A stretch of DNA of 32,000 bases from Corallococcus macrosporus. GTDB lineage: Bacteria > Myxococcota > Myxococcia > Myxococcales > Myxococcaceae. The DNA lies in the NCBI RefSeq assembly GCF_017302985.1, contig NZ_JAFIMU010000004.1:816869-848868 (forward strand), written 5' to 3'. Position 1 is the stretch's first letter; the number at the start of each line of letters is the position of its first letter. A model generated the notes under the pieces. The model saw only the letters and a program-made list of their open reading frames with translations. It was not told where the DNA came from and did not search any database. This document shows, in pieces, positions 1 through 17,567 of this stretch. The translations under genes were made by a program, and so were the position numbers.

Positions 1-316
1 CCAGCTCGCCCTGGAGGAACGCCTCGAAGATGGCCCCCACCCCTCGCATGCCGAAGGGGGCGAGTTCCGCAGCGCGCAGGGCCCCCATGCTGGCGCTGCC
101 GTAGACGTGGATGCCCTCTGACATGGCCCAGAGGAGCTCCTTGTGCCACACGGCGGGGACTCGCTCGAAGTAGCCGTCGATGAGGCCCAGAGCCTGGGGG
201 TGCTCGCGCGCGGCCCGGTACACGTCCCCCTGGGCCGCGGGAGGGAGGAACACGGCGTCGAGTTCCCGCTGTCCTTCCTCGGCGCGGAGGGTGGGGCCGG
301 CGAAGATGTAGATCAT
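1..316 (-). CDS. TfuA-like protein, N-terminal part only (gene runs off the left edge)
   Basis: Hand translation of the reverse strand from ATG 316-314 gives MIYIFAGPTLRAEEGQRELDAVFLPPAAQGDVYRAAREHPQALGLIDGYFERVPAVWHKELLWAMSEGIHVYGSASMGALRAAELAPFGMRGVGAIFEAFLQGEL. This is co-linear with the N-terminus of the 7775..9124 paralogue and matches the TfuA signature (PPAxxGD, IDGYF, HKE, SMGALRAAEL). There is an ATGA start/stop overlap with the upstream YcaO gene. Confidence 0.85.
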   Translation of the reverse strand, partial: MIYIFAGPTLRAEEGQRELDAVFLPPAAQGDVYRAAREHPQALGLIDGYFERVPAVWHKELLWAMSEGIHVYGSASMGALRAAELAPFGMRGVGAIFEAFLQGEL

Positions 317-1560
317 GAGAGGCGCGCCTCCATGAGCCGGCGGGCGCGGCGCCCCGGAACGTACCCGGGCGCGTCGTGGAGGGACTCCAGGCCGGGAATC
401 ACCACCCGCGCCACCGGAATCTGGAACGCGGGCTTGGTGAGGTCCACGAGCACCACCTGGTCGAGCCCCACTGAGCCCAGGCGTTCCAGCTCCCAGGCCA
501 CGTCCTCATCGAAGCTGGCCCCCTCGAAGGTCGGGACGTCCTGGAAGCGCCGCTCGGCCTCCGGCTCACGCATCAGCGCCTGGACGCGCTGCGCGAGCAC
601 CGGATCCTGCAAGACATTGTAGGACCGGGCCACCGAGAGATCATCGCGTGACCCGGAGATGAGCGTGGCCCGGACCTGGGCCGCCTCGGTGAGCGCTCGG
701 AGGAGGGCCACCTGGCGGGTGGGATGGCAGCCCATTCCCGACGTCGGGTAGAGCGGGCGGAAGGGCTCCGGCTCTCGCTCGGCGCACATGCAGAGGAAGG
801 CGGGCAGGCCCACATCCGAGGTTGTCTCCCAGACAGCCACGTCCACTCCGGCCCGGTCGAACTTCTCCAGCACTGCGTTACAGTCCGGATCCTCCACCGT
901 CCCCAGGTCGAGCCGGGTCCGCCGCCTTGCCTCCGGAGTTTGCAGGTGCCAGAGGGTGGTGGCGTCACGCTCCACCACCTCGCAGATGCCGTGACTAAGG
1001 GCCTCCAGGAGGTGGTTGCCCGAGGACAGCCCGTTGGAGCTCATGAAGAAGGCGCCGCTACCCGAGGGAAGCGGCAGGGTGTAGTCGGTGTGGACCAGCT
1101 CGAAGGGCAGCCACACCGGCGTGTTTCCCCGCAGCTCGTGCCCCTGGATCCACAGGAGCCGCTGGGAGGGCTGGAAGTCGTTGACCGACAGCCGGGGGAG
1201 CCCGCCGACGTCCACTAGCGGGTGGGAGAAGCGCAGCTCCTGGTAGCTCGCGAGAAGGAGGGGGAGGGTGATGTGCTCGGCATGGTACGTCTCCACGGCC
1301 TCCATCAGCCCGGAGGCCTTGGCTGCGTCCAGGTCCAGGCCCTTACCCTGGGAGACCGCGAGGGACCGCGAGTTGGGCCGGCAGACCGTGACCACCGGAA
1401 TGCCCAGCCGGTCCAGCCCCGTGATGTTGGCGATGCGGGTGATGCCCATGACCGCCATCAGGGGGCGCACCCGCCGCAGCGTCTCCTCGGGAGGAATCAG
1501 CCGGTGCGTTCCCGCCCGGTGGTGCTTGGGGGCCTGGGGCCCGGGAGGGAAGACACGCAT
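313..1560 (-). CDS. YcaO-domain protein (stand-alone, TfuA-associated type), cassette A
   Basis: 415-aa ORF. It has the YcaO ATP/Mg-binding region ...SSGNHLLEALSHGICEVVERDATTLW... and N-terminal GITRIANITGLDRLGIPVV and SQGKGLD motifs. By eye it is roughly two-thirds identical to the 9121..10365 paralogue. Its ATG (1560-1558) overlaps the stop of the upstream gene (TGATG). Confidence 0.9.
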   Translation of the reverse strand: MRVFPPGPQAPKHHRAGTHRLIPPEETLRRVRPLMAVMGITRIANITGLDRLGIPVVTVCRPNSRSLAVSQGKGLDLDAAKASGLMEAVETYHAEHITLPLLLASYQELRFSHPLVDVGGLPRLSVNDFQPSQRLLWIQGHELRGNTPVWLPFELVHTDYTLPLPSGSGAFFMSSNGLSSGNHLLEALSHGICEVVERDATTLWHLQTPEARRRTRLDLGTVEDPDCNAVLEKFDRAGVDVAVWETTSDVGLPAFLCMCAEREPEPFRPLYPTSGMGCHPTRQVALLRALTEAAQVRATLISGSRDDLSVARSYNVLQDPVLAQRVQALMREPEAERRFQDVPTFEGASFDEDVAWELERLGSVGLDQVVLVDLTKPAFQIPVARVVIPGLESLHDAPGYVPGRRARRLMEARLS

Positions 1561-2393
1561 CAGACCCTCTCAGGTGGGCTCGCGGTCTGGCCTTGGCCTT
1601 CCCCGACCTGGGGCGCGGCCTTGGGGTTGGAGCTCAGCTCCGCGGCCTTCTTGCTCCCGAGTTTGAGGGAGGCCAGGTTCAGCAGGAAGCATGAGCAGCC
1701 AACGGTTGGCAGGAAGGGAATGTCCGCGAGGACCGCGCCCAGCCCCACCATGAGCTTGGGGGCACTGGCCAAATCATCGGGAAGCGTCCGGTACCGGTAG
1801 TCGTCGTACTTCAGCCAGTAGAAATCCCCCTTCTCGCTGAAGATGATCAGGTCCTTATCGCCAATCAGGGTCTTCTGCCCAGTCCCGGGGAGCAGGGGCT
1901 CCTGCTCGACGTATTCGAGCAAGGCCTTGTCTTTCTTGACGCGCTTGTTGATCTGCCTTCGCTTTCCCGCCTTTTCCCGGTCGTTGACGAGGGAAGCCAG
2001 ATTCAACACGATGCACGCGATTCCCTTTGTCAGACAATGGAATTCATCCATTTCGAAGGACTGGAGGTCCGCTGCCACGGCACCCAGCCCTACGACGAAC
2101 TCCGGTGCGGCCCAGAGCGACGGCGGGAGCGGGGTGGCTGCATAGGCTTGCTGGGGGGCCACGTAATACTTTCCGTCCTCGCCGAAGATGATCAAGTCAT
2201 TCTGCAGGAGTTGCATTGGCGCCGATTGCGCCCGCGCGTCGCTGACTGGCGGGGAGGGGGCCTCGGCGGGAGGGCCATCCGGAGGGGCGGCTGTGTATCC
2301 GCCGGTCCTGCTACGTGAGCGCTGGCGTCTGGACGCTCCCCCGTGGCTTCGGGCGCTCTGGAAGCCGAACTTGATATCTTTTATAAAACCCAT
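1560..2393 (-). CDS. Candidate YcaO/TfuA substrate protein with two internal ~65-70 aa modules and a basic, Pro-rich N-terminal region
   Basis: 277-aa ORF with ATG at 2393, preceded by GGAGGAG 7 nt upstream. It contains two copies of the pattern DLIIF-x-E-x-G-x-[YF]Y...LP...AP...VGLGAV-x-AD...G-x-x-C-x-x-LNLASL. It sits directly upstream of YcaO and overlaps it by 1 nt. I recognise no known family. Confidence 0.75.
   Translation of the reverse strand: MGFIKDIKFGFQSARSHGGASRRQRSRSRTGGYTAAPPDGPPAEAPSPPVSDARAQSAPMQLLQNDLIIFGEDGKYYVAPQQAYAATPLPPSLWAAPEFVVGLGAVAADLQSFEMDEFHCLTKGIACIVLNLASLVNDREKAGKRRQINKRVKKDKALLEYVEQEPLLPGTGQKTLIGDKDLIIFSEKGDFYWLKYDDYRYRTLPDDLASAPKLMVGLGAVLADIPFLPTVGCSCFLLNLASLKLGSKKAAELSSNPKAAPQVGEGQGQTASPPERV
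1665..1853 (-). repeat. Module copy 2 inside the 277-aa protein (residues 181-243)
   Basis: DLIIFSEKGDFYWLKYDDYRYRTLPDDLASAPKLMVGLGAVLADIPFLPTVGCSCFLLNLASL. Confidence 0.8.
1989..2198 (-). repeat. Module copy 1 inside the 277-aa protein (residues 66-135)
   Basis: DLIIFGEDGKYYVAPQQAYAATPLPPSLWAAPEFVVGLGAVAADLQSFEMDEFHCLTKGIACIVLNLASL. It aligns with copy 2 and with the 10386..10583 module. Similarity is also visible at DNA level (gaagatgatcaagtc vs gaagatgatcaggtc). Confidence 0.8.
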
Positions 2394-2435: not shown

Positions 2436-3176
2436 TCACGCATTGCTCTCGGGACGGACGTTGGGACGGCTCAGAAGCGGGGAGAACTGGTAGTGGCGTG
2501 AGACGTTGCGGAAGATGTGCTGATCCTGTGTGCCAAGGTTGTTGAGCTCGAAGTAGTCCTGGTTGTCTGAAAGCTGCATCATCAGGTACTCCAGGTCCTC
2601 GGTCTCTCTGAAATCCCAGATGTTCAAGATTTCGAATTCGTTGCTGGTTTCGCTTATTTTCTGTCCCGCGACGATCAGCCTGAGGCCATTCTGAAGAAAG
2701 ACCGGCAGCAGACGTCTCTTCAGCTCTGAGAACCTATCGACCTTCTTCTCTGAGTCCACCGTGATGGTTGTGTAGAGGAGATAGGGTTCCAGCATCGCTT
2801 CATGGGACATGCGGGAGTTGATGTAGCTCATCTGGGTGAAGTAGTGAGTTTCCAGGTCTGTCTTGTTGTCTGGAACGAGTCCCAGGATCTGCTTCTGGAA
2901 GGGCAGTGGCTGTCGATGGTCTCCGTTGCCAAACATTGTCGTGAGGGTCTCCGAGCAGGCCCCCCGTCTGTCGATGTAGTAGATCTCGATCAGCCGCTCG
3001 GGGTTGCCAGTCAGCGCGGCGCCCTTGATCTGGCGGATCCAATCAATGGAAGGCTGTTCGAGGTACCGCTTCCGTACCTGGGTCGCCAGCAGGTAGCGCA
3101 GCATCTGCCCTTTCTTGGGTTTGCCGGTGAATTGCACGTAGTCGACAAGGTCTACATTGCTGTCGTTGATTTCCAT
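2436..3176 (-). CDS. Hypothetical protein, probably a tandem ferredoxin-like alpha+beta barrel (NIPSNAP/Dabb-like pattern), cassette A
   Basis: 246-aa ORF with ATG at 3176 and GGAGAAGGAAG just upstream. Its C-terminal half (LLYTTITVDSEKKVDRFSELKRRLLPVFLQNGLRLIVAGQKISETSNEFEILNIWDF...) aligns with the C-terminal half of the 10818..11555 product. The fold assignment comes from sequence pattern only. GC content is clearly lower (about 50% in sampled 60-nt stretches) than in neighbouring genes. Confidence 0.6.
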   Translation of the reverse strand: MEINDSNVDLVDYVQFTGKPKKGQMLRYLLATQVRKRYLEQPSIDWIRQIKGAALTGNPERLIEIYYIDRRGACSETLTTMFGNGDHRQPLPFQKQILGLVPDNKTDLETHYFTQMSYINSRMSHEAMLEPYLLYTTITVDSEKKVDRFSELKRRLLPVFLQNGLRLIVAGQKISETSNEFEILNIWDFRETEDLEYLMMQLSDNQDYFELNNLGTQDQHIFRNVSRHYQFSPLLSRPNVRPESNA

Positions 3177-3216: not shown

Positions 3217-4137
3217 TCATCCCCGCGCTTCCTCTTGCGCCAGGGGCTGTCCGGCCAGCACCCGTTCCACGAAGTCCGCGACCGGGCGGGGGCGTACCGG
3301 AATGGCGTCCATCGCCGGGCGCGGGTCGAGTTCGCAGCCGAGCGCGAGGTTGAGCATCAGCGCGGCGAAGGAGCGCTGGAGGGGGTCCGTGGTGGCTTCG
3401 TACTGCTCGCGGAGCGCGGACTCGGGGACGTACTCACGCTCCCAGGCCCGGCCGCTCCGCTCCTCGAACAGGCGCACCACCTGGAGCTGACCTACCGCCT
3501 CCTCGGCTCCGAGCTCGAGCACGGCGCCCCAGGCACGAGGGGTGTCCAGCGCTCCGGCGGCGAACCGGGCCACGTCCTCGAGGGTGATCCAGTTCACCCG
3601 TCCCTCTCCCGTTCCCAGGACGCGGGCCCGGGCCTTCACGGCGTCGAAGCCCATGGCCGCGCTCAGCCAGACGTCGCTGAAGAAGGTGGGACGCAGGAGG
3701 GTGGTGCGGGGGAATCCGCCGCGCAGCACCTCCTGCTCCACCGCGCGCTTGGCGTCCTGGAGCGGGAAGTTCCCCTGGAGCGGCGGGAAGGAGACGAACA
3801 CGAAGTGCTCCACCCCCGCGCGCCGTGCCGCCTCCACGAGGGCAAGCTGGCCTTCCAGGTCGACGGACTGGATGGAATCTCCCGGCTGCCTCGACAGCAT
3901 GCACGACGCTGTCGTGATGACTGCTTGCGCGCCCGCGCAGAGCGCGTCGAGCGACGCGGGCTGCTTCAGGTCTCCCGGGTGCGTCTCCACGCCCAGGCGC
4001 TTCAGCCGCTCGACACGGCGGGAGTCCGAGGTTGGCCGGACGAGGGCCCGGACCCGAGCGCCGCCAGCCCGCAGTTGCTGACAGACCGTTCCCCCCAACA
4101 TCCCCGTGCCGCCGGCCACGGCGGTGATTCCTCTCAT
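3217..4137 (-). CDS. NmrA-like / atypical SDR NAD(P)-binding protein
   Basis: The N-terminal Rossmann motif is ITAVAGGTGMLGGTVCQQL. ATG at 4137 is preferred because GAGGAGAGGA lies upstream. The ORF track extends to 4152. Confidence 0.75.
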   Translation of the reverse strand: MRGITAVAGGTGMLGGTVCQQLRAGGARVRALVRPTSDSRRVERLKRLGVETHPGDLKQPASLDALCAGAQAVITTASCMLSRQPGDSIQSVDLEGQLALVEAARRAGVEHFVFVSFPPLQGNFPLQDAKRAVEQEVLRGGFPRTTLLRPTFFSDVWLSAAMGFDAVKARARVLGTGEGRVNWITLEDVARFAAGALDTPRAWGAVLELGAEEAVGQLQVVRLFEERSGRAWEREYVPESALREQYEATTDPLQRSFAALMLNLALGCELDPRPAMDAIPVRPRPVADFVERVLAGQPLAQEEARG

Positions 4138-4148
4138 GGTTCCTCTCC

Positions 4149-7100
4149 TCACAGATACCGCCAGCTCCGCGCGGACGCGGTGGCGCGCTCCAGGGACTCC
4201 CGCGTCGCCTTCCGCTGGCCTTCAGTCCAAACATGGATCGCCTTCTCCAATTGGGAAGACAGCGCTTCCGGGAGCCGCTGTTGGGTCGGGTCCAGCAGGG
4301 CACGCGCATGCTCCACTGCCTCCGTGAGGAATTGGCGCTGGAGCGCGATCGCCAGGAGCACCCACAATCCCTGCCATTGAAAGGGATAGGGGTAGATGGC
4401 GGAGAGCTTGCGCCAGCACTCCAGGGCCGCCCGGGCCTCCTGTTCGGCGTCGTCCAGCCGTTGCTCCCGCCAGGCCACCCACGCCTGGCTGGCCCGGGCC
4501 GCTCCCACGTAGTCCGTCATCCGGGCCATGGCCGCCACGTCCAGGCTTCGTGCGCTGGACTCCCGGGTGCGGTCGACGAGCCCTCGCCGGCGGTACACCA
4601 GGGTCAGGTAGGTGAGCAGGCGCGACTGGAGCGTCAGGTCTCCTGTCTCTTCCGCCAGCCGCAGCCCGGCGAGGCCCTGTTCCTCCGCCAGGTCCAGCGC
4701 TCCGGACAGGACCAGGGTGAACGCATGACAGAAGAGGGCCAGCGCCTGGGTGGAGAGGTCCTCCGCGGTCCTGGCGGCCTCCACCGCCAGGCGGCCGTAC
4801 TCCACCATCTGGGGGGAGATGGCGTAGCGCTCCTGCCGGAAGCACGTGTTCGCGAACACGACGAAGAAGCGGGCGCGCTGCGCGCCCGTTCCGTAGGTCT
4901 CCAGCACCGGGCGCACCCGCTCCACGAGCGCGCCCATCGCCTCCCGGTCATCCTGCCAGTACAGGGTCCAGTGCAGGTCCTCCTGGAGTTGCAACCACTC
5001 CTGCCACCAGGTCCGCGCCGCTGGCGCTGTCGTGTCCTCCGCCTTGGGCGGGGTGCCCAGGGCCGCCTCGGCATCCGCGTACGCGCGCAGCGCCTCTTCG
5101 TGCCGGTGGTGTGTCTCCCAGGTCTTGCCCACCCTGCGAAGGATGCTGGCCCGGTGCACCTGCCCCTCCACCGGAAGGCAGGCCAGCGCCTCGCCATAGG
5201 CCGTGCGCGCTTCTTCCTGCCGCCCGGTCAGCGCAAGCACGTCCGCGAGGCTTTCGTGGATGGGTAGAAAGGACGGCCTCCCGCCCGGGGGCGCGTCCTT
5301 CGCCCGGGCGCGGTGCGCGCGCGCTTCAGCCAGCGCGGCACGATACGAGGTGATGGCTTCGCCATTGGCATGGGTGGCCCGGGCGCGGTCCGCGGCCCGG
5401 CGGAAGTAGTCGCTGGCCCGGTCGGGGACCCCCGCCCTGGACCAGTGGTTGGCCAGGCTGGAGAAGAGCAGGTCGAAGTCGCGCGCATGCTGGTGCCGCT
5501 GCTCGATGACCTCGGCGGCGCGGCGGTGGAGCTGGCGCGCGCGCTCCGGAGGAATGCGGGCGTAGGAAATCTCGCGCAGCTTGTCGTGGAGGAAGCGCAG
5601 CCGCCCTCCCGCGCCCCTTTCGAGGATCTGCCGCACTCGCAGCGTCTGCAGCGCCTCCAGGGCCAGCGCCTGCTTCAGCGGCGCCGCGGACAGCAACACC
5701 TCCACGTCACACTCACGGCCGAGCACGGCCGCGAACTCCATGAGCGCCTGCGCCGGGGGTGGGAGGTCCCGCAGGCGCCGCTGGATGATCTCCGCGATGA
5801 AGAGGGGCAGGCCCATGCCGTCGAGCGAGGCGCGGGGCTGGCCCTGCTCTTCCAGGCGCCACTGGCCCCATTCGTCGCGGTGGAGCAGCCCCTCCGTGAT
5901 GGCGGCCCTCAGGTACTCCGCGATGAAGAAGGGATTGCCCTCGGCCTGGTGCACCAGCCCGTCGAAGTCCTTCGGCAGCGTGTGCAGCGCGAGCATTCCA
6001 CCGACCATGGACCGGATGCCCTGCTCGTCGAGCAGCTCCAGCTCCAGGTGGAGGGCTCCGGACATGGACACCACTTCGTCCAGCACTCCGCCGCGCTCCT
6101 CCATGCGGTAGGTCCCCAGCAGGAGCACACCCCGTTCGACCAGCTCCTCGTGCCGCAGCTGCTGGAGGAAGCCCAGGGACATCTCGTCCGCCCACTGGAG
6201 GTCATCGATGATGATCAGCAGCGGGTCCTCCTCTGCGAAGGCGAAGAGGACCTCCCTCAGGGCCGCGAAGATGCGGGCGCGCGCGGCCGCGGCGTTCGCG
6301 GGGGGCGGAGGCACGGGCAGCTCCCGCTGGCCGGGCAGGTCCTCCAGGGCGGGCTCATAGGCGACCAGGACCTTCCCCTGGGACCCGAGCAACCGTGCCG
6401 TCTCCTCCGGGCCTCCCTGACGGCAGTGGTCCGCGACCGCGGCGAGCAGGGGGCGGAAGGGATGAAGGGGAGGGGCCTTCATGTCCGTGTCGGCCTGCGG
6501 ACCGGAGAGGCCGAGCGGGATGCACTCGCATGTCACCACGGGGAGCTCCCGGGCGCGGGCTTCGCGGGCCAGCTCCAGCGCCAGCCGGGTCTTGCCGACT
6601 CCGCTGCCGCCGCCAATGAAGATTCCTCCTCCATTGCGAGCAAGCCGCTCGCGGAGGCGGCGCATGGTGTCCTCCCTCCCCGTGAAGAGCGGGCGGTAGA
6701 GGTAGGGCCGGCTCTCAGGCAGTCCCGCTGGCTCAGGGGCCTCGACCCCCAGCTCCGACAGCGCCCGGGCCACGTCGTCGGCGTAGCCGAGCCGGTCCTC
6801 GGGCTGCTTCGCGAGGAGCGTGAGGATGAGCCACTCCAGCTGTACCGGAAGCCGCTCCTCGGTGAGCTGTGAAGGCGGGGTCGGGGGCTCGCGCAGGTGC
6901 CGCTTGCGGATGACACGGCTTGAGCTTCCGAAGAAGGGAACGAAGCCGGTCACGCATTCATACAGGATGCACCCCAGGGAGTAGAGGTCGGCGCGGGCGT
7001 CCACGAGGTCGGCACGAATCTGCTCGGGCGCCATGTACAGGAGCGTGCCCAACCCGGCGTTGCCAGCCTGGAGGCTCTCCCGCCCGAAGGGCCCGCCAAA

Positions 7101-7676
7101 CAGCGCCGCCACCCCGAAGTCCCCGAGGACCACGCTCCCATCGGGCTGGATGAAGATGTTGCCGGGCTTGAGGTCGCAGTGAACGAGACCGCAGCCGTGC
7201 AGGTAGGCCAGGGGCGCGCACAGCTGTCGCACGACCTTCAGCAACGGGCGGGAGGGCAGGGACGTGGCGTGCGAGTCCTCCACGGACCGCCCGGCGGTGA
7301 CCCTCGGAGCGCGGGAGGACTGGCCGAAGGACAGGCTGTGGTGCTCTTCGAGGACCTGCCTGAACGTGCGGCCCTCCAGCAATCCCATCGCATACCAGGG
7401 GAGCCCGCCGGACATGCCGTGGTCGAGGATCCGCACGATGCCCGGGTGATGGATCCGGATGAGCGCCTGGATCTCCCTCCGGAGGCTGGCCAGGGTCTCG
7501 GTGCCCGTGACGCGGACCGTCTTCAAGGCCGCGCGCTGACCTGTCACGCGATGCTGGCCCAGGTAGACGATGCCCATGCCCCCATGGCCGAGGATTCCCT
7601 GGACCTGATAGGGCCCCATCCACCGGGGCATTCCAGGGCGTGCCTCCTCCAGCACCCAGGACTCGTGCTCGCTCAT
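4149..7676 (-). CDS. Ser/Thr protein kinase fused to an AAA/P-loop NTPase and a TPR-like helical C-terminus (STAND-like signalling protein)
   Basis: The kinase subdomains are GHGGMGIVYLGQH, HCDLKPGNIF, DFG and YMAPE. A P-loop GGGSGVGKTRLALE follows, then a long helical repeat region. ATG at 7676 is preferred because GGGGAGGAG lies upstream. Confidence 0.88.
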   Translation of the reverse strand: MSEHESWVLEEARPGMPRWMGPYQVQGILGHGGMGIVYLGQHRVTGQRAALKTVRVTGTETLASLRREIQALIRIHHPGIVRILDHGMSGGLPWYAMGLLEGRTFRQVLEEHHSLSFGQSSRAPRVTAGRSVEDSHATSLPSRPLLKVVRQLCAPLAYLHGCGLVHCDLKPGNIFIQPDGSVVLGDFGVAALFGGPFGRESLQAGNAGLGTLLYMAPEQIRADLVDARADLYSLGCILYECVTGFVPFFGSSSRVIRKRHLREPPTPPSQLTEERLPVQLEWLILTLLAKQPEDRLGYADDVARALSELGVEAPEPAGLPESRPYLYRPLFTGREDTMRRLRERLARNGGGIFIGGGSGVGKTRLALELAREARARELPVVTCECIPLGLSGPQADTDMKAPPLHPFRPLLAAVADHCRQGGPEETARLLGSQGKVLVAYEPALEDLPGQRELPVPPPPANAAAARARIFAALREVLFAFAEEDPLLIIIDDLQWADEMSLGFLQQLRHEELVERGVLLLGTYRMEERGGVLDEVVSMSGALHLELELLDEQGIRSMVGGMLALHTLPKDFDGLVHQAEGNPFFIAEYLRAAITEGLLHRDEWGQWRLEEQGQPRASLDGMGLPLFIAEIIQRRLRDLPPPAQALMEFAAVLGRECDVEVLLSAAPLKQALALEALQTLRVRQILERGAGGRLRFLHDKLREISYARIPPERARQLHRRAAEVIEQRHQHARDFDLLFSSLANHWSRAGVPDRASDYFRRAADRARATHANGEAITSYRAALAEARAHRARAKDAPPGGRPSFLPIHESLADVLALTGRQEEARTAYGEALACLPVEGQVHRASILRRVGKTWETHHRHEEALRAYADAEAALGTPPKAEDTTAPAARTWWQEWLQLQEDLHWTLYWQDDREAMGALVERVRPVLETYGTGAQRARFFVVFANTCFRQERYAISPQMVEYGRLAVEAARTAEDLSTQALALFCHAFTLVLSGALDLAEEQGLAGLRLAEETGDLTLQSRLLTYLTLVYRRRGLVDRTRESSARSLDVAAMARMTDYVGAARASQAWVAWREQRLDDAEQEARAALECWRKLSAIYPYPFQWQGLWVLLAIALQRQFLTEAVEHARALLDPTQQRLPEALSSQLEKAIHVWTEGQRKATRESLERATASARSWRYL

Positions 7677-7774
7677 GACTCCTCCCCTGTCGTGTGCAAG
7701 CGCTCGCGCACGCGCGGCGCCTCTCACGGATCAGGGTGGTGATGGCGGGACGGCCTTGCCTCGCTCTGCCTCTT

Positions 7775-9124
7775 TCAATCGGACGCCAGCGATCCCGCCT
7801 CCCGCAGATAGCAGTACTCCCGCAGCGCGGCCCGTCTGAGCGCATCCACGTGGGCGAAGCCGGCCTCGTTGCTGAAACGCTCGAGGTCGGTAGGGATGGA
7901 CCGGCCGAGCCGCTCGGTGAAGTACCACTCCCAGAGCGCGTTGTCGGTGAGCCCGGCCTCGTCCAGCCCGGGCCGCTCCAGGCCGGCCCGGGCCAGGACC
8001 CGCTCCTTGTCCTCCAGGCGCTCCATCAGCGCCCCGTAGAGCCCGCGGGCGCGCAGATGATCCGGCAGGCAGCGGAGCACCTCGGGCTCGAGCAGCGCCT
8101 CGATCCTGCGCACCCGGGCCTCGTCCTCGAAGAAGCGCACGGGGGCCTCCAGCCGTTGCTCCGCCACCCAGTGTTCGAACTGCCTCAGGGTGAGCAGGTC
8201 CTTCTCGCGGCGGAATGCCTCGCAGGTCCGTCGCAGCCCCTCCGCATCCACCGTATCCGCCTGCCTTCGCGCCTCCTCCAGGGCCAGGGCTCGCGCCAGG
8301 GCGCCGGCACGGACCCGGGGCAGGAGGCCGGACACCCGCAGCTCCTCGAGCAGCGCCTCGCTCGCGAGGGTTTCGCGCGCCGGGGCTCCGGTGGGAAGCC
8401 GGCCCGCGCTCTGGCATGCGTCCGCCCAGGCGTCGGTATGCGCGAAGGCGTACGTCACCTGCTTGGGGCCGGGGCGGGCCGTCTGGTGGTCCCGCAGCGC
8501 GTGCAGCAGGGCCAGCGCATCGGCGCGCTTCTGGTCGACCCGTCCTCGCGGAAGCCATTCGCGCAGCCCTCGTAGCTCGTCCGGGGGCACCCCCTCACGG
8601 GGGGCCTGCGCGAAGAGTGCCGGCCAGCTCCGCTCCGGGTAGTGGAGCGCCTTGGCGAGCCGCACCAGCGTCGTGTGGGCTGGCGCGCTGATGACGCCCG
8701 CGCGCTCGGCGCCCTTCAGGGTGGCGCGGATGTTGACCAGGGCCTCCGACAGCGAGCGGAAGCCGTCCTCCGCGGATGCGTGAGCGATGGCCACCTCGTC
8801 GTCGTCCTCCAGCTCGCCACCCTGGAAGGCCTCGAAGATGGCGCCCACGCCCTGCATCCCGAAGGGCGCCAGCTCCGCCGCGCGCAGCGCGCCCATGCTC
8901 GAGGCGCCGAAGACGTGGATGCCCTCGGACATGGCCCAGAGGAGCTCCTTGTGCCAGACAGCGGGCACGTCATCAAAGTAGCCATCGATGAGTCCAATGG
9001 CCTCCGGGCGATCGAGCGCCGTCCGGTAGAGGTCCCCCTGGGCCGCGGGGGGAAGGAACACGGCGTCCAACTCGCGCGCCGCCTCCTGGGCGCCGAGCGT
9101 GGGCCCGGTGAAGACGTAGATCAT
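7775..9124 (-). CDS. TfuA-like protein with a long C-terminal helical extension, cassette B
   Basis: Starts MIYVFTGPTLGAQEAARELDAVFLPPAAQGDLYRTALDRPEAIGLIDGYFDDVPAVWHKELLWAMSEGIHVFGASSMGALRAAELAPFGMQGVGAIFEAF. ATG 9124-9122 overlaps the YcaO stop 9123-9121 (ATGA). The upstream part of the listed 543-aa ORF lies inside the YcaO gene and is rejected. Confidence 0.88.
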   Translation of the reverse strand: MIYVFTGPTLGAQEAARELDAVFLPPAAQGDLYRTALDRPEAIGLIDGYFDDVPAVWHKELLWAMSEGIHVFGASSMGALRAAELAPFGMQGVGAIFEAFQGGELEDDDEVAIAHASAEDGFRSLSEALVNIRATLKGAERAGVISAPAHTTLVRLAKALHYPERSWPALFAQAPREGVPPDELRGLREWLPRGRVDQKRADALALLHALRDHQTARPGPKQVTYAFAHTDAWADACQSAGRLPTGAPARETLASEALLEELRVSGLLPRVRAGALARALALEEARRQADTVDAEGLRRTCEAFRREKDLLTLRQFEHWVAEQRLEAPVRFFEDEARVRRIEALLEPEVLRCLPDHLRARGLYGALMERLEDKERVLARAGLERPGLDEAGLTDNALWEWYFTERLGRSIPTDLERFSNEAGFAHVDALRRAALREYCYLREAGSLASD

Positions 9125-10365
9125 GAAGCGTGCTCCCCCAGCACCTTCCGGGCGCGGGTGCCCGGGGTGTAGCCCGGCGTGCCGTGTTCGGGCTCCAGGC
9201 CGGGAACGACCACCCGCGCCACGGGGATGCGGAACTCGGGCCGGGTGAGGTCCACCACGGCGGCCTGCCGCAGCCCCGCCGCCGCCAGGCGCTCCAGCTC
9301 CCACGCCACGTCCTCGTCGAACGAGCGGCCCACGAAGGTGGAGACCTCCTGGAAGCACCGCGTGGGCGACTCGCCACGCATCCGCTCCACCTCCCGGCGC
9401 CAGCATTCTGGATCCTGGTAGGCCCGGTAGCAGCGGGCCACCCCCATGTCGTCGCGGGCGCCGGAGATGAGCGTGGCGCGCACCTGAAGCGCCTCGGTGA
9501 GTGCACGCAGCAGGGCGATCTCCCGGCTGGGATGACAGCCCGAGCCCGAGGTCGGCGCGCGCGGACGCAAGGGATCCAGCGAGCGCTCGGCGAGGGTGCA
9601 GAGGAAGGCGGGCAGCCCCACGTCGCTGGTCGTCTCCCAGACGGCCACCTCCAGATCGGCGCGCCCGACCTGCTCCAGCACCTGGAGGCAGGAGGCGTCC
9701 TCGACCGTGTCCAGCCGCAGCCGCGTGCGGCGCCGGGCGTGGTCACCCTGGAGGTGCCACAGGGTATTGGCGTCTCGCTCCACGACCTCGCACAGGCCGT
9801 GGCTGATGGCCTCCAGCAGGTGGTTGCCGGAGGCCAGCCCGTTGGAGCCCATGAGGAACGCGCCGCTGCCCTCGGGCAGCGGCAGGGTGAAGTCGGTGTG
9901 GACCAGCTCGTAGGGCAGCCACAGCGGCTCGCCGGTGGCGAGGTCGCGCCCTTCGACCCACAGCAGGCGCCGCGCCGGGTGGAAGTCGCTCACGGACAGT
10001 CGCGGCAGCGCGGCCACGTCCACCACGGGCTGGTGGGCCCGCAGCTCGTCGTAGCTGGCGCGCCGCAACGGCAGACAGATGTGCTCGGCATGGTAGGACT
10101 CCACCGCCTCCATCACTCCGGAGACCTTGGCGGCGGTGAGGTCCAATCCCTTGCCCTGGGAGATCGCCAGCGAGCGTGCATTGGGCCGGCAGACCGAAAC
10201 CACGGGAACACCGAGGCGGTCCAGGCCCGTGATGTTGGCGACGCGGGTGATGCCCATCGCCGGCAGGAAGGGGCGCACGCGCCGGAGCGTCTCCTCGGGA
10301 GAGACCATCCGGTGCGTGCCCAGGCAGTGCCTCTTGGGGGCCTGCGCCGCGAGGGAGCGGTTCAT
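9121..10365 (-). CDS. YcaO-domain protein (stand-alone, TfuA-associated type), cassette B
   Basis: Contains ...SGNHLLEAISHGLCEVVERDANTLW.... The start at ATG 10365 is chosen because it gives MNRSLAAQAPKRHCLGTHRMVSPEETL, which is co-linear with MRVFPPGPQAPKHHRAGTHRLIPPEETL of paralogue A. It also overlaps the upstream stop as ATGA. The ORF track's GTG at 10413 is the alternative. Confidence 0.9.
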   Translation of the reverse strand: MNRSLAAQAPKRHCLGTHRMVSPEETLRRVRPFLPAMGITRVANITGLDRLGVPVVSVCRPNARSLAISQGKGLDLTAAKVSGVMEAVESYHAEHICLPLRRASYDELRAHQPVVDVAALPRLSVSDFHPARRLLWVEGRDLATGEPLWLPYELVHTDFTLPLPEGSGAFLMGSNGLASGNHLLEAISHGLCEVVERDANTLWHLQGDHARRRTRLRLDTVEDASCLQVLEQVGRADLEVAVWETTSDVGLPAFLCTLAERSLDPLRPRAPTSGSGCHPSREIALLRALTEALQVRATLISGARDDMGVARCYRAYQDPECWRREVERMRGESPTRCFQEVSTFVGRSFDEDVAWELERLAAAGLRQAAVVDLTRPEFRIPVARVVVPGLEPEHGTPGYTPGTRARKVLGEHAS

Positions 10366-10718
10366 TTCTTCGTGCTGCTCTTCCGGAGGCTGGCGAGATT
10401 CATGAGGAGGCACGCGCAGCCCACGCCCGGAAGGCTGTTGGCGGGCACATCCGCCAACACCACGCCCTGACCCACCAGGACGCTCATCTGGGGGGTCACG
10501 TCTTGAGGAAGCTCGGTGGATTCGTAGTCTTCCTTCTTGACCCAGAAGAACTTCTTTCCGGTCGGGCCGAGGATCACCAGGTCATCCGGGCCGACGATCT
10601 CGATATCAACGGCCTTCGGCTGGCGCTGCGCCCGTGCCTTCGCGACCCGGGCCGCCGGGCGCTGCCGAGGGCTTGTCTTCTTCTTCGGGGCCTCCGGTGG
10701 ATTTCGACGAGTTGCCAT
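10362..10718 (-). CDS. Candidate YcaO/TfuA substrate protein with a single module and a Lys/Arg-rich N-terminus
   Basis: 118 aa from ATG 10718, with GAGGGA 6 nt upstream: MATRRNPPEAPKKKTSPRQRPAARVAKARAQRQPKAVDIEIVGPDDLVILGPTGKKFFWVKKEDYESTELPQDVTPQMSVLVGQGVVLADVPANSLPGVGCACLLMNLASLRKSSTKK. It has the same module as the two copies in 1560..2393. Confidence 0.75.
   Translation of the reverse strand: MATRRNPPEAPKKKTSPRQRPAARVAKARAQRQPKAVDIEIVGPDDLVILGPTGKKFFWVKKEDYESTELPQDVTPQMSVLVGQGVVLADVPANSLPGVGCACLLMNLASLRKSSTKK
10386..10583 (-). repeat. Third copy of the DL[IV]I...VG-x-G-x-V-x-AD...G-x-x-C...NLASL module (residues 46-111 of the 118-aa protein)
   Basis: By-eye alignment with 1989..2198 and 1665..1853. 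Confidence 0.75.
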
Positions 10719-10817
10719 GACGATCCCTCGCTTTGTCTGGGTGTTTGTTTCAGAGACAGATCCCGCTGCTCTTGAACGGACTTCGCTCCAGCCGGACAAC
10801 ACGGCCTGACATGGAGG

Positions 10818-11555
10818 TCAGCCGGCTCCGGGCCCGGACGGGTTGGTTGTGTACCCGGAGGCATTGACCCTCCCCGGTCCGGGGATCGGTATGCGGCCCC
10901 CGAAGGCTTGGATTCCATGCATCAGGTCCTGATGTTGGACCGTGTTGCTGTTGAGCTCGGCGTAGGGAATGACGTCCTTCAGCTTGTGCATCATCTGGTC
11001 GAGCGCGTTCGCGTCTTTGAGCCGCCACAGGTGCATGACGCGGTGGGGAGGATGGAGGCCATGGCCGGCGGCCAGCAGCGTCCAGCCGTTGTCCTGGAAT
11101 GCGGGCAGTATCTCCGTCATGATTTCACTGAAACGGCTCAGATTGCCGTCCTTCACATCCAATTGGACGTGGAGGAGATGGCTGTTGGCGGTGAGCTCGG
11201 CGTCTGGCCTCCCGCTCGGCGCATAGCTCATCGCACGCAGCAACTCGACGTCACGCTGCTCGCAGTGGCTCATGAGCTGCGTGTATTGCTGGTTGTCCAT
11301 CATGCCCGCCGCATCCATCACGCACTTGGTGTCGCTGCCAGCGTAGAGCTCGAGGATCCTGATGGGGAGGCCTGTCAGGGAATAGCAGGTGGCAAACCGT
11401 GACCAGCCGAGCTTGCTTGCGTCACTGCTCAGTCTGATGAGGTCCTGCGTGATGAACTCCGCGGCCTTGCTTGGCTTCACGGTGCTCGTGACGTGAAGGT
11501 AGACTCGCGGCTGGGCAGGCTCCTGCGGAGTCGTTTCGTCCTCTGGATTTCCCAT
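10818..11555 (-). CDS. Hypothetical protein, probably a tandem ferredoxin-like alpha+beta barrel (NIPSNAP/Dabb-like pattern), cassette B
   Basis: 245 aa from ATG 11555, with GGAAGG 6 nt upstream. Both halves show the strand-helix-strand pattern (VYLHVTSTVKPSKAAEF...ILELYAG and LLHVQLDVKDGNLSRFSEIMTEILPAFQDNGWTLLAAGHGL...VMHLWRLKD). It is homologous to 2436..3176. Confidence 0.6.
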   Translation of the reverse strand: MGNPEDETTPQEPAQPRVYLHVTSTVKPSKAAEFITQDLIRLSSDASKLGWSRFATCYSLTGLPIRILELYAGSDTKCVMDAAGMMDNQQYTQLMSHCEQRDVELLRAMSYAPSGRPDAELTANSHLLHVQLDVKDGNLSRFSEIMTEILPAFQDNGWTLLAAGHGLHPPHRVMHLWRLKDANALDQMMHKLKDVIPYAELNSNTVQHQDLMHGIQAFGGRIPIPGPGRVNASGYTTNPSGPGAG

Positions 11556-12074: not shown

Positions 12075-12199
12075 GGTGATCGTCCCCCCCTTGGAAGCCG
12101 ACGCTCTGACATGAGCGCCGCTCCTCCTTCCTCAAGACCCGGGAATCCCGCGGTGTGATGGGCGGGACAGGTTCCCGCGACGCACCCGGAGGATCAGCC

Positions 12200-12823
12200 G
12201 TGCAAGCAGACAACCAGACGAGATGGGACGACGAGATTCACGACCTCTGCCGGCGAAAGCAGATGAACCAGGCCGTGGAATTGGCGGTGCGCGGCTACGG
12301 GCCAGAGGTTCGCCGGCTGATGTTCGCCATCCTCCAGGATGATGCGCGCGTCCAGGATGCCTTCGGCCTCTTTTGCGAGGGCCTGGTCAAAGGACTGCCG
12401 CGCTTCCGGTGGGAGAGCTCCCTCTGGACCTGGATCCAACGCATGGCACGCAACGCCTGCTACAAGCAGGTGAATGCAGCCGCCGTGCGGTATCCGCACC
12501 TGCGCCTGTCCGAGGCGCCCGAGCAGCCCGCGGGCCGACGCTCCTTGACGGATCCATGGCAGCGCACGCTCGTGAAGGAGCGCTTCCGGGCCTTGCGGCG
12601 CAAGCTGGAGCCACAGCAGCAAAGGCTTCTGGAGCTTCGCCTGGACCAGCGGCTTCCCTGGACGGAGGTGGTCCGGTTGATGGCGACCGCCGAGGAGCCG
12701 CTGACGCAAGAAGCGCAAGCCCGCCGGGCGGCGGCACTGCGCCAGCAGTTCCAACGCGCGAAGTCCCACCTGCGCTCCCTGGCCGTGCAGGAAGGGCTGC
12801 TCGCTTATCAAGACACGATGTAG
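12200..12823 (+). CDS. ECF-type RNA polymerase sigma-70 family factor
   Basis: The region 2-like segment is VRRLMFAILQDDARVQDAFGLFCEGLVKGLPRFRWESSLWTWIQRMARNACYK. The region 4-like segment is QQRLLELRLDQRLPWTEVVRLM. GTG at 12200 is preferred because GGAGGA lies 6 nt upstream. The ORF track start is 12155. Confidence 0.8.
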   Translation: MQADNQTRWDDEIHDLCRRKQMNQAVELAVRGYGPEVRRLMFAILQDDARVQDAFGLFCEGLVKGLPRFRWESSLWTWIQRMARNACYKQVNAAAVRYPHLRLSEAPEQPAGRRSLTDPWQRTLVKERFRALRRKLEPQQQRLLELRLDQRLPWTEVVRLMATAEEPLTQEAQARRAAALRQQFQRAKSHLRSLAVQEGLLAYQDTM

Positions 12824-16062: not shown

Positions 16063-16247
16063 GCGGCCGCTGTAGCGCCCTGTTCCGTCGGAAAGGGGCC
16101 GTGCTGTTTCGGACGGACCTTCGCGCTTTCAGACGGGAATGCGGCTGGTGGCCTCTCGTTCGGTGCCTATATTGAGAGCCGTTGGTCCTCCACCGTCGCT
16201 CGCCGTCAGCAATCGCACCCGAACCAGGTCAGGTCGCGAAGCCCACG

Positions 16248-17567
16248 ATGCGAAAGAACTTCATCCTCGACACGAACGTCCTCCTCCATGACCCCCGCAG
16301 CATCTACGGGTTCAAGGACAACAACGTCATCATCCCCATCTACGTCATCGAGGAGATTGATCAGTTCAAGCGCGATCTCTCCGAGCTGGGGCGCAACGCG
16401 CGACTGGTGGCGCGCTACCTGGACTCCTTCCGCGCCGAAGGCTCCATGAAGGAGGGCGTCCCGCTGCCGCACGGCGGGATGCTCCGCGTGGCCTTCACCG
16501 ACCGTTCGCTGCCGTCCTCCATGGCGGACAGCAACCTGGTGGACAACCGCATCCTCGCGGTGGCCCTGGACCTGATGGAGACGGAGCCGGACACCCAGGC
16601 CGTCTTCATCACCAAGGACACCAACCTGCGCATCCGCGCCGACGCCCTGGGCCTGTCCGCCCAGGACTTCGACACCGAGCGCGTCGAGATCACCGACCTC
16701 TACACGGGCTTCACGGAGCTGCTCGTCCCCACGGACATGGTGGATCAGCTCTACAAGCCCGGCGGCGAGGTGGAGGTGCCGGCGCAGGACCGGCTCTTCC
16801 CCAACCAACTGGTGCTGCTCAAGGACGAGCTCAACCCGTCCCACACCGCCATGGCCCGCTTCAACGGCGCCAAGGCACGGCTCGTGCCGCTCGCGCGCCA
16901 GAGCAAGGAAGGCACCTGGGGCATCCGCCCGCGCAACATGGAGCAGGCCTTCTGCCTGGACCTCCTGCTCAACGACGAGATCAAGCTCGTGACCATCGTG
17001 GGCAAGGCCGGCACGGGCAAGACGCTGCTCGCCATCGCCGCGGGCCTGCAGAAGGTGACGGAGGAGGGGCTGTACCACAAGCTGCTGGTCAGCCGTCCCA
17101 TCTTCCCCCTGGGCCGGGACATCGGCTACCTGCCGGGCAGCGTCGAGGAGAAGCTCAACCCCTGGATGCAGCCCATCTTCGACAACGTCGAGTTCCTCAT
17201 GAACCTGAGCCGCGCGGACAAGAAGGCCGGGCGCGGCCACCATGAGCTCATCGACCTGGGGCTGATGGAGATCGAGCCGCTCACGTACATCCGCGGGCGC
17301 AGCATCCCCAACCAGTTCATCATCGTCGACGAGGCGCAGAACCTCACCCCGCACGAGGTGAAGACCATCCTCACCCGCGTGGGCGACAACACGAAGATCA
17401 TCCTCACCGGCGACCCGTTCCAGATCGACAACCCGTACGTGGACTCGACGAACAACGGCCTGGTGCACGTGGTCAACCGCTTCAAGAACGAGAAGATCGC
17501 CGGCCACATCACCATGGCCAAGGGCGAGCGCAGCATGCTGGCCGAGTTGGCGGCCAACCTGCTGTAG
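16248..17567 (+). CDS. PIN-domain / PhoH-like ATPase fusion (PhoH2/YlaK type)
   Basis: The N-terminal PIN domain is MRKNFILDTNVLLHDP...IPIYVIEEID...ITKDTNLRIRA. The C-terminal PhoH P-loop is GKAGTGKTLLA with Walker B IIVDEAQNL. ATG at 16248 is preferred over the ORF-track start 16182. Confidence 0.88.
   Translation: MRKNFILDTNVLLHDPRSIYGFKDNNVIIPIYVIEEIDQFKRDLSELGRNARLVARYLDSFRAEGSMKEGVPLPHGGMLRVAFTDRSLPSSMADSNLVDNRILAVALDLMETEPDTQAVFITKDTNLRIRADALGLSAQDFDTERVEITDLYTGFTELLVPTDMVDQLYKPGGEVEVPAQDRLFPNQLVLLKDELNPSHTAMARFNGAKARLVPLARQSKEGTWGIRPRNMEQAFCLDLLLNDEIKLVTIVGKAGTGKTLLAIAAGLQKVTEEGLYHKLLVSRPIFPLGRDIGYLPGSVEEKLNPWMQPIFDNVEFLMNLSRADKKAGRGHHELIDLGLMEIEPLTYIRGRSIPNQFIIVDEAQNLTPHEVKTILTRVGDNTKIILTGDPFQIDNPYVDSTNNGLVHVVNRFKNEKIAGHITMAKGERSMLAELAANLL

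Follow-up and report, generated by a model that had tools for sequence, protein, structure and literature searches.

YcaO and TfuA proteins are known for thioamidated peptides and for McrA; how protein-sized substrates are found, and which other actors work on them, is largely open. In TfuA systems, the delivery of sulfide is credited to a ThiS-type thiocarboxylate together with TfuA (PMC13063428). Thioamidation of an McrA glycine, where the target is a protein and not a peptide, provides the closest named models for the YcaO and TfuA proteins considered here (TIGR03266 and NF033432; PMC5589413). These proteins score below the equivalog cut-offs of the two models. To our knowledge, the archaeal McrA system contains no barrel, kinase, NmrA or module protein of the kind described below. 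A 2021 mining study counted TfuA clusters from Corallococcus as part of the dominant proteobacterial cluster families and did not dissect them (PMC8120280). We analyzed a stretch of 32,000 nucleotides from Corallococcus macrosporus (the window), in which two minus-strand gene strings, cassettes A and B, have an identical order: a gene for a predicted alpha+beta barrel protein (barrel 1, 2436-3176; barrel 2, 10818-11555), a gene for a module protein, a YcaO gene, and a TfuA gene.

The barrels define a rare protein family that is essentially confined to one YcaO-TfuA system, and the real unit of this system additionally comprises a STAND-type kinase and an NmrA-like protein. From comparison of the sequences, we consider the chances about even that the barrel is a module-binding, substrate-specific escort or adaptor.

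The barrel proteins are predicted tandem barrels related to NIPSNAP

The initial annotation of the window held that the two barrel genes are homologous and that each product looks like two ferredoxin-like repeats. Both statements are borne out. BLASTP aligns 185 residues of the two proteins at 27% identity (E 7e-15), with the RFSE...AG and ..W.. stretches quoted in that annotation inside the alignment. AlphaFold2 models, built on input alignments of 32 relatives and 25 relatives, were of high confidence and reached a predicted local distance difference test (pLDDT) score of 89.2 and a predicted template modelling (pTM) score of 0.85 for barrel 1, and 83.8 and 0.79, respectively, for barrel 2. 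In both models, DSSP assigns the succession strand-helix-strand-strand-helix-helix-strand, occurring twice, in agreement with an hhalign comparison of the N-terminal and C-terminal barrel halves (99.0%, E 3.5e-18, 82 columns). As modelled, both barrels are made of two homologous ferredoxin-like halves that form a tandem alpha+beta barrel. Foldseek comparison of the models with PDB yielded 121-138 matches at E<=0.001, every one of alpha+beta barrel architecture, as the initial annotation had expected. The best match for both barrels is 2pgc, a tandem barrel of marine metagenomic origin (E 1e-10 to 1e-9, template modelling (TM) score 0.64-0.77; TM 0.65/0.77 for barrel 1, E 1.4e-10 for barrel 2). 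Further matches are the tandem ABM-type putative monooxygenases 3f44 and 3mcs, anthrone-oxidase-like 5f9p, PenE (9kdp), HemQ/chlorite-dismutase-like proteins, and sulfur oxygenase reductase (TM ~0.63).

At the level of sequence, neither barrel has a match in Pfam (E<=0.1), in NCBIfam or among PDB sequences, and profile searches against the PDB were likewise without significant matches. Neither reaches the gathering threshold of the NIPSNAP model PF07978. The Dabb model PF07876 has zero matches among the window barrels and the relatives scanned, and the ABM model PF03992 has zero among the window barrels and one among 25 relatives, at E 0.012 and under the cut-off. A single-sequence search with barrel 1 was nearly empty (one homologue in 5.8 billion proteins and zero in 60 related genomes), and profiles were therefore required. 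When 1.84 billion cluster representatives were searched exhaustively with phmmer, 52 proteins were recovered at E<=0.001, 14 of them at E<=1e-10. The most distant phmmer matches of barrel 2 are tandem NIPSNAP proteins that score above the Pfam threshold (P0027, P0029, and P0048). The Pfam NIPSNAP model is matched by three of 25 relatives and by 14 of 24 other weak matches, and when 32 YcaO-linked barrels were aligned with the three NIPSNAP proteins in hhalign, the match extended over 202 columns (99.5%, E 2.8e-22). Judged by these profile comparisons, the barrel family is a branch of the NIPSNAP superfamily that has diverged very far and is so far without annotation.

The barrel alignments contain no conserved stretch of 7-10 columns. 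In barrel 1 numbering, which is used throughout, W187 and L134 are invariant; T56, Y118, L167, M199, Y208, and Q219 are nearly invariant, and H185 is mostly conserved. No cysteine column is conserved in the 32-member alignment, and the two window barrels have no cysteine in common. A CC pair precedes the Q-x-Q strand in many members of the family but is absent from both window barrels and from 9 of the 32 aligned members. The order of the halves is swapped, with the W-motif half first, in 8 of 12 barrels recovered in a YcaO-seeded scan (see below). In one locus (L025:9768-10617, minus strand, genome G359), the barrel gene is found in two overlapping frames of 243 and 59 residues, reflecting either a frameshifted pseudogene or a sequencing error. 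There are also single-domain relatives of ~120 residues. One (L085:9159-9524, plus strand, genome G359; 121 residues) sits inside a cassette, between the kinase and a two-module protein, and another (G353 C1:1508761-1509099) is far from any YcaO gene.

The barrel is linked to YcaO and TfuA outside the window

Among barrel-bearing cassettes, ca. 29 have readable surroundings. Every one of them has a YcaO gene nearby, plus a TfuA gene where the contig extends, and the sole barrel relative outside the gene set is one stray single-domain protein. The gene set consists of a Ser/Thr kinase of kinase-AAA-TPR architecture, often an NmrA-like NAD(P) protein, the barrel, a module protein with a cysteine motif, YcaO, and TfuA. 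Its hosts are myxobacteria of two orders, one Azospirillum, and some metagenome-assembled genomes (MAGs). In profile searches that covered 401 genomes of the phylum, the module was detected in 22 genomes and the barrel in 10, the latter confined to one family and three genera. In nine out of nine related myxobacterial loci, the barrel was accompanied by one or more modules, YcaO, TfuA, and a kinase homologue of 57-65% identity. G016, a congener of the window's host, carries the barrel gene twice and also has two genes for single-module proteins. Seven out of seven readable metagenome contigs, carrying relatives 20-60% identical, have the order kinase TPR end - (NmrA) - barrel - module - YcaO - TfuA as far as each contig extends, except that in L036 the NmrA gene is between barrel and module.

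A scan seeded with a YcaO alignment, and conducted with one genome per species, returned 80 named loci, including loci from Vitiosangium, Archangium, Myxococcus, Pyxidicoccus, Sorangium, Polyangium, Chondromyces, Azospirillum, and many MAGs. Hidden Markov model (HMM) scans of these loci revealed the barrel in 12 and the module in 19 of the 80. All 12 barrel loci had the module, and none of the 61 module-less YcaO loci had the barrel. In the alphaproteobacterium Azospirillum agricola CC-HIH038 (L148), all six genes are present in a different order, module-YcaO-TfuA-barrel-kinase-NmrA. The YcaO protein of this locus is sister to that of a Polyangiaceae MAG, which suggests that the whole six-gene set moved horizontally into Azospirillum; other Azospirillum YcaO-TfuA loci are devoid of module, barrel, and kinase. 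In a Polyangiaceae MAG (L161), the genes form two operons, with module-YcaO-TfuA convergent with barrel-kinase-NmrA.

The initial annotation had named a lack of linkage to YcaO/TfuA outside this locus as grounds for its refutation. The opposite is seen: linkage is strong and persists despite deep divergence, rearrangements, and probable horizontal transfer. The conserved unit also goes beyond what was first seen, since it includes the kinase-AAA-TPR gene, found in nearly every barrel locus, and the NmrA-like gene. The proposal that the barrel is the conserved first gene of the cassettes does not hold everywhere: the barrel is absent from about half of the related module-YcaO-TfuA cassettes, and at some loci it follows TfuA or belongs to a separate operon. 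The suspicion that such a protein is not a described YcaO/TfuA partner agrees with the library that was searched, where we found no publication linking TfuA to NIPSNAP, ABM or NmrA. The fold and the superfamily of the barrel are known, and its specific context is new.

Gene organization of the window

The window has a G+C content of ~70%, and the host genome is 9.8 Mb in size. The genes of the two cassettes, and those between them, are as follows.

2..316, minus strand: TfuA 1, truncated by the window edge (PF07812, E 1.2e-26)
313..1560, minus strand: YcaO 1 (PF02624, E 1.3e-83)
1560..2393, minus strand: module protein 1, 277 residues, two modules of ~80 residues with a C-x-[LV]-[LV]-N-L tail, presumed YcaO-TfuA substrate (module HMM domains, E 1e-26 and 1e-29)
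2436..3176, minus strand: barrel protein 1, 246 residues, predicted tandem ferredoxin-like alpha+beta barrel, divergent NIPSNAP superfamily (open reading frame, AlphaFold2, Foldseek, hhalign)
3217..4152, minus strand: NmrA-like NAD(P)-binding atypical short-chain dehydrogenase/reductase (SDR), immediately upstream of barrel 1 (PF05368, E 3e-30)
4149..7727, minus strand: Ser/Thr kinase - AAA_16 - TPR protein, STAND-type (Pfam domains)
7775..9406, minus strand: TfuA 2 with a C-terminal extension (PF07812, E 9e-47; NF033432, E 2e-61)
9121..10413, minus strand: YcaO 2 (PF02624, E 3.6e-80)
10362..10802, minus strand: module protein 2, one module (module HMM, E 2e-30)
10818..11555, minus strand: barrel protein 2, 245 residues, paralogue of barrel 1 (BLASTP, E 7e-15; AlphaFold2; Foldseek)

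Cassette A consists of barrel 1 (2436-3176), module protein 1 (1560-2393), YcaO 1 (313-1560), and TfuA 1 (2-316), and cassette B of barrel 2 (10818-11555), module protein 2 (10362-10802 or 10362-10718), YcaO 2 (9121-10413), and TfuA 2 (7775 to ~9124); the kinase and NmrA-like genes are placed between the two cassettes. The TfuA 2 frame listed above overlaps YcaO 2, and its real start is probably an ATG near 9124; that of module protein 2 is probably the ATG at 10718. The nearest NCBIfam model for YcaO 1 is TIGR03266 (YcaO of McrA-glycine thioamidation), with a score under its cut-off. Both barrel frames begin with ATG. A Shine-Dalgarno-like stretch, GGGAGAAGGAAG, is located 4 nt upstream of the barrel 1 start, and the barrel 2 start is preceded by GGAAGG, also Shine-Dalgarno-like. 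Intergenic gaps are short in both gene strings, and a promoter and terminator scan of the window revealed nothing exceeding shuffled expectation and no terminator-like site between the minus-strand genes.

YcaO 1 and YcaO 2 are 69% identical, and the modules of the two cassettes are 45% identical over 77 residues. According to YcaO trees, cassettes A and B are old paralogues: YcaO 1 clusters with the NmrA-barrel-two-module type of other genera, and YcaO 2 with the type of congeneric species. The C-terminal extension of TfuA 2 (~230 residues, window 7775-8520, minus strand) is conserved at 28-58% identity in many TfuA genes, which come from the same YcaO clade and several phyla and include some at loci that have neither module nor kinase. 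A gene for an ECF-type sigma factor (12155-12823, plus strand) is divergent from and upstream of cassette B, and a PIN-PhoH fusion protein is encoded farther along the window (16182-17567, plus strand).

Many related cassettes lack the barrel

About half of the related module-YcaO-TfuA cassettes are without a barrel, and we therefore conclude that the barrel is not core to thioamidation. Barrel-less kinase-module-YcaO-TfuA cassettes offer no space for a barrel gene and have no match to the barrel HMM. Their module proteins mostly have an extra, unrelated N-terminal domain of ~100 residues. This domain was found in L073-L081 and L086, from Myxococcus/Pyxidicoccus-type genomes, and in L082 and L084; by eye it seems beta-rich, and it has no Pfam match. 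We rejected the idea of a barrel in disguise, given the hhalign result (0.2%) and the lack of a Pfam match. In L072 and L083, the N-terminal stretch of the module protein is basic and disordered-looking.

In Sorangium, Polyangium, and Chondromyces, a protein encoded between kinase and YcaO in cassettes without a barrel ends in a C-x-V-L-N-L motif. Proteins of 215-250 residues that the module HMM misses were seen in L096, L100, L102, L104, L105, L108, L112, and L129. In the five loci that were read (L100, L102, L112, L101, and L129, the last with a variant motif), the tail is C-x-V-L-N-L-A-x-F. Since proteins missed by the HMM share the module tail, the HMM captures only part of the substrate family, and the tail is what its members have in common.

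In YcaO trees, the cassettes with a barrel are spread over several separate, deep branches, and clades without one nest among them; the distribution of the barrel requires a minimum of six changes. The root of the YcaO tree is not known; because the position of the barrel is constant, its repeated loss is more economical than repeated gain.

The NmrA-like protein, the kinase, and natural fusions

In Myxococcaceae, the NmrA-like gene was present in 12 out of 12 barrel-bearing loci whose flanking sequence was long enough, and in 0 of 15 loci without a full-length barrel. When 49 loci were considered, 21 had both barrel and NmrA, five the barrel only, two NmrA only, and 21 neither. These counts are raw and not phylogenetically independent, and the association is descriptive, since there are just two well-supported independent pairs. 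The best PDB matches of the window NmrA-like protein are 5f5l/5f5n (E 2e-18), triphenylmethane reductase, and PCBER-type reductases; it retains the GxxGxxG motif and is similar to genuine NAD(P)H reductases.

Kinase homologues are 46-65% identical beside Myxococcaceae cassettes and ~30-50% identical in more distant loci, and in metagenome contigs the C-terminal TPR end of the kinase gene is just upstream of the barrel. The kinase (window 4149-7727; L022-L030, L072-L086, L087-L163) is found in nearly every module-YcaO-TfuA cassette, with or without a barrel, and its kinase motif is HCD instead of HRD. The view of the set as a defence system was rejected, as PADLOC matches the generic kinase domain only; barrel, module, YcaO, TfuA, and NmrA match no PADLOC defence model.

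Two natural fusions were observed. In a Polyangiaceae MAG (L163:5592-6998, plus strand), one open frame directly upstream of YcaO encodes a barrel half followed by two modules; it could serve as a natural model of a barrel-module complex. In the complete genome of Sorangium sp. So ce1000 (L098:5254-6909, plus strand), an NmrA-like domain (residues 24-311) is followed by two modules in one frame.

The barrel and the module evolve fastest

In five orthologous locus pairs, nonsynonymous divergence (dN) was 0.12-0.59 for the barrel, 0.08-0.54 for the module, and 0.014-0.07 for YcaO, making barrel and module the fastest-evolving genes of the set. The ratio of dN to synonymous divergence (dS) for the barrel in the same pairs was 0.31-0.56, which shows that the barrel is a real gene under purifying but loose selection. 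Between L110 and L119, the identity is 92% for the kinase domain, 89% for AAA, 58% for TPR, 41% for the barrel, 65% for NmrA, 44% for the module, 92% for YcaO, and 83% for TfuA, and dS is raised in the TPR-barrel-NmrA-module block (0.94 for TPR). In this single pair, the block looks like an exchangeable unit between conserved enzyme parts. A recent foreign origin of the low-G+C barrel and module genes was rejected, since the same dip in G+C content, overall and at third codon positions, is seen in orthologous loci elsewhere; because the dip recurs in other genomes, low G+C content is a property of these gene families.

Discussion

If the barrel is an escort or adaptor, YcaO and TfuA would thioamidate the module protein, and the barrel would not be needed for that step, since many cassettes are without it. 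The barrel would bind the module protein directly, hold it or present it to YcaO-TfuA, to the NmrA-like protein, and perhaps to the TPR arm of the kinase, and diversify jointly with the module; in cassettes without a barrel, the module would usually come with its own N-terminal domain of ~100 residues, or fused to a partner. We favour this explanation because the barrel is dispensable for the core, is architecturally tolerant, has few invariant residues, co-diversifies with the module, and is fused to it once. The tolerance of half-size, long-insert, and half-swapped variants makes a scaffold a better fit than a precise active site. Several observations weigh on the other side. The structural neighbours of the modelled barrels are mostly enzymes (ABM-type monooxygenases, PenE, HemQ/chlorite dismutase, and sulfur oxygenase reductase), and the nearly invariant polar residues T56, Y118, Y208, and Q219, together with the mostly conserved H185, could line an active site. 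The barrel tracks the NmrA-like reductase (21/5/2/21), which fits two-enzyme tailoring at least as well. In L148 and L161, the barrel gene adjoins the kinase gene and not the module gene, and the fusion of barrel and module comes from one MAG. The association tests are phylogenetically non-independent, with two well-supported independent pairs, and both barrel-module binding and barrel chemistry are predictions.

The enzymatic neighbours and the link to NmrA lead to another explanation, that the barrel is a putative tailoring enzyme, a cofactor-free oxygenase or isomerase that would work with the NmrA-like NAD(P)H reductase in a second redox step on the module, before or after thioamidation. 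Its best structural matches include 3f44, 3mcs, 5f9p, and PenE (9kdp); barrel and NmrA-like genes are jointly present or absent in 42 of 49 loci; the NmrA-like protein keeps GxxGxxG, is akin to real reductases, and, being fused to two modules in So ce1000, would act on or with the module. Atypical SDRs paired with cofactor-free barrel-like partners, SnoaW/SnoaL2 and KstA16/KstA15, provide a precedent (PMC12281474), and tailoring genes are typically gained and lost between related clusters, as the barrel is. Yet the barrel has no ABM Pfam match, its likeness to the enzymes is at the level of fold only (TM 0.5-0.65, 7-16% identity), and its sequence changes very rapidly, with half-size and permuted forms tolerated. 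Five barrel loci have no NmrA and two NmrA loci have no barrel, and the precedent is an analogy, as the SnoaL2 partner has a SnoaL/NTF2-like fold. We regard a tailoring enzyme as the main rival to the escort or adaptor, possible though on the unlikely side. The kinase suggests a different partner: with NmrA sensing redox state, the barrel could be a ligand-binding regulator of the kinase-AAA-TPR protein instead of a module partner. A kinase is present in nearly every barrel locus, often with the barrel directly after the TPR end; the barrel of L148 and L161 clusters with kinase and NmrA, apart from the module; and in L110/L119 the TPR part, barrel, NmrA, and module make up a single block of deep divergence, flanked by conserved kinase/AAA and YcaO/TfuA parts. 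However, cassette B of the window has a barrel and no kinase of its own, the kinase is kept in barrel-less cassettes, and the half-barrel is fused to modules, not to a kinase, so we consider such a regulator improbable.

Sulfur handling, one of the roles suggested in the initial annotation, is disfavoured. The barrel would in this case carry or deliver sulfur, e.g., as a persulfide, to YcaO-TfuA. Sulfur oxygenase reductase indeed has the same fold (TM ~0.63), and many family members have the CC pair before the Q-x-Q strand, but the pair is absent from both window barrels and from 9 of 32 members, the paralogues share no cysteine, and barrel-less cassettes exist. Since no cysteine is conserved, and TfuA with the ThiS-type thiocarboxylate already accounts for sulfide delivery (PMC13063428), a sulfur relay seems very unlikely. 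We give still less credence to the barrel being an unrelated neighbour, a general stress/NIPSNAP protein that is beside the cassettes by chance. Single-domain NIPSNAP-like relatives without YcaO do occur in these genomes (e.g., G353 C1:1508761), but the linkage is kept across 24-40% identity, two Myxococcota orders, one alphaproteobacterium, at least three gene orders, and one fusion, and the barrel was found in 0 of 61 module-less YcaO loci.

A wider proposal, which we offer tentatively and with more doubt than confidence, is that the barrel may be a new substrate-recognition or maturation factor, distinct from the RiPP recognition element (RRE), for YcaO enzymes that act on small folded proteins, and that the barrel, the NmrA-like protein, and the TPR arm of the STAND kinase may jointly form an exchangeable specificity block co-diversifying with the thioamidated protein. 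If this is true, the set as a whole would constitute a myxobacterial protein-modification and signalling system that was previously unknown. A barrel that is a substrate adaptor would mean a new recognition principle for the YcaO class; a barrel that is an enzyme would mean new chemistry on thioamidated proteins. Natural experiments are provided by cassettes with and without the barrel, by half-size, permuted, and fused forms, and by the presence of two diverged cassettes in one genome, and these variants make the role of the barrel directly testable.

Comparison with known systems

Tandem NIPSNAP proteins (PF07978; P0027, P0029, and P0048; structural-genomics entry 2pgc) resemble the barrels in having two ferredoxin-like halves per chain and a full-length profile match, and 2pgc and the tandem NIPSNAP proteins have the W-centred strand motif in common with the window barrels. 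Unlike them, the barrels fall under the Pfam and NCBIfam thresholds and are tied to module-YcaO-TfuA-kinase sets. The NIPSNAP name gives no mechanism, because bacterial NIPSNAP proteins and 2pgc are without known function. ABM-type monooxygenases (PF03992; 3f44/3mcs, PenE 9kdp) share the predicted alpha+beta barrel architecture (Foldseek E 1e-9 to 1e-5, TM 0.52-0.65) and, like the barrel, are found in natural-product gene clusters, but there is no sequence-level match to the barrel (7-16% identity), and the known ABM substrates are small aromatics, not proteins.

In the SnoaW/SnoaL2 and KstA16/KstA15 pairs, an NAD(P)H-dependent atypical SDR is encoded together with a small cofactor-free partner, and both are required (PMC12281474). 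There, the partner adopts the SnoaL (NTF2-like) fold, with an anthracycline as substrate, whereas the pairing of NmrA with the barrel is one of co-occurrence. The RRE partners of YcaO have a PqqD-like winged-helix fold, which differs from the ferredoxin-like barrel predicted here, and the substrate in RRE systems is a leader-core peptide, in contrast to a folded protein of ~80-residue modules with putative binding by the barrel. In function, the RRE may nevertheless be the analogue of the barrel, as a separate or fused, fast-diverging protein that takes over the substrate specificity of a conserved YcaO (an idea set out in PMC13063428).

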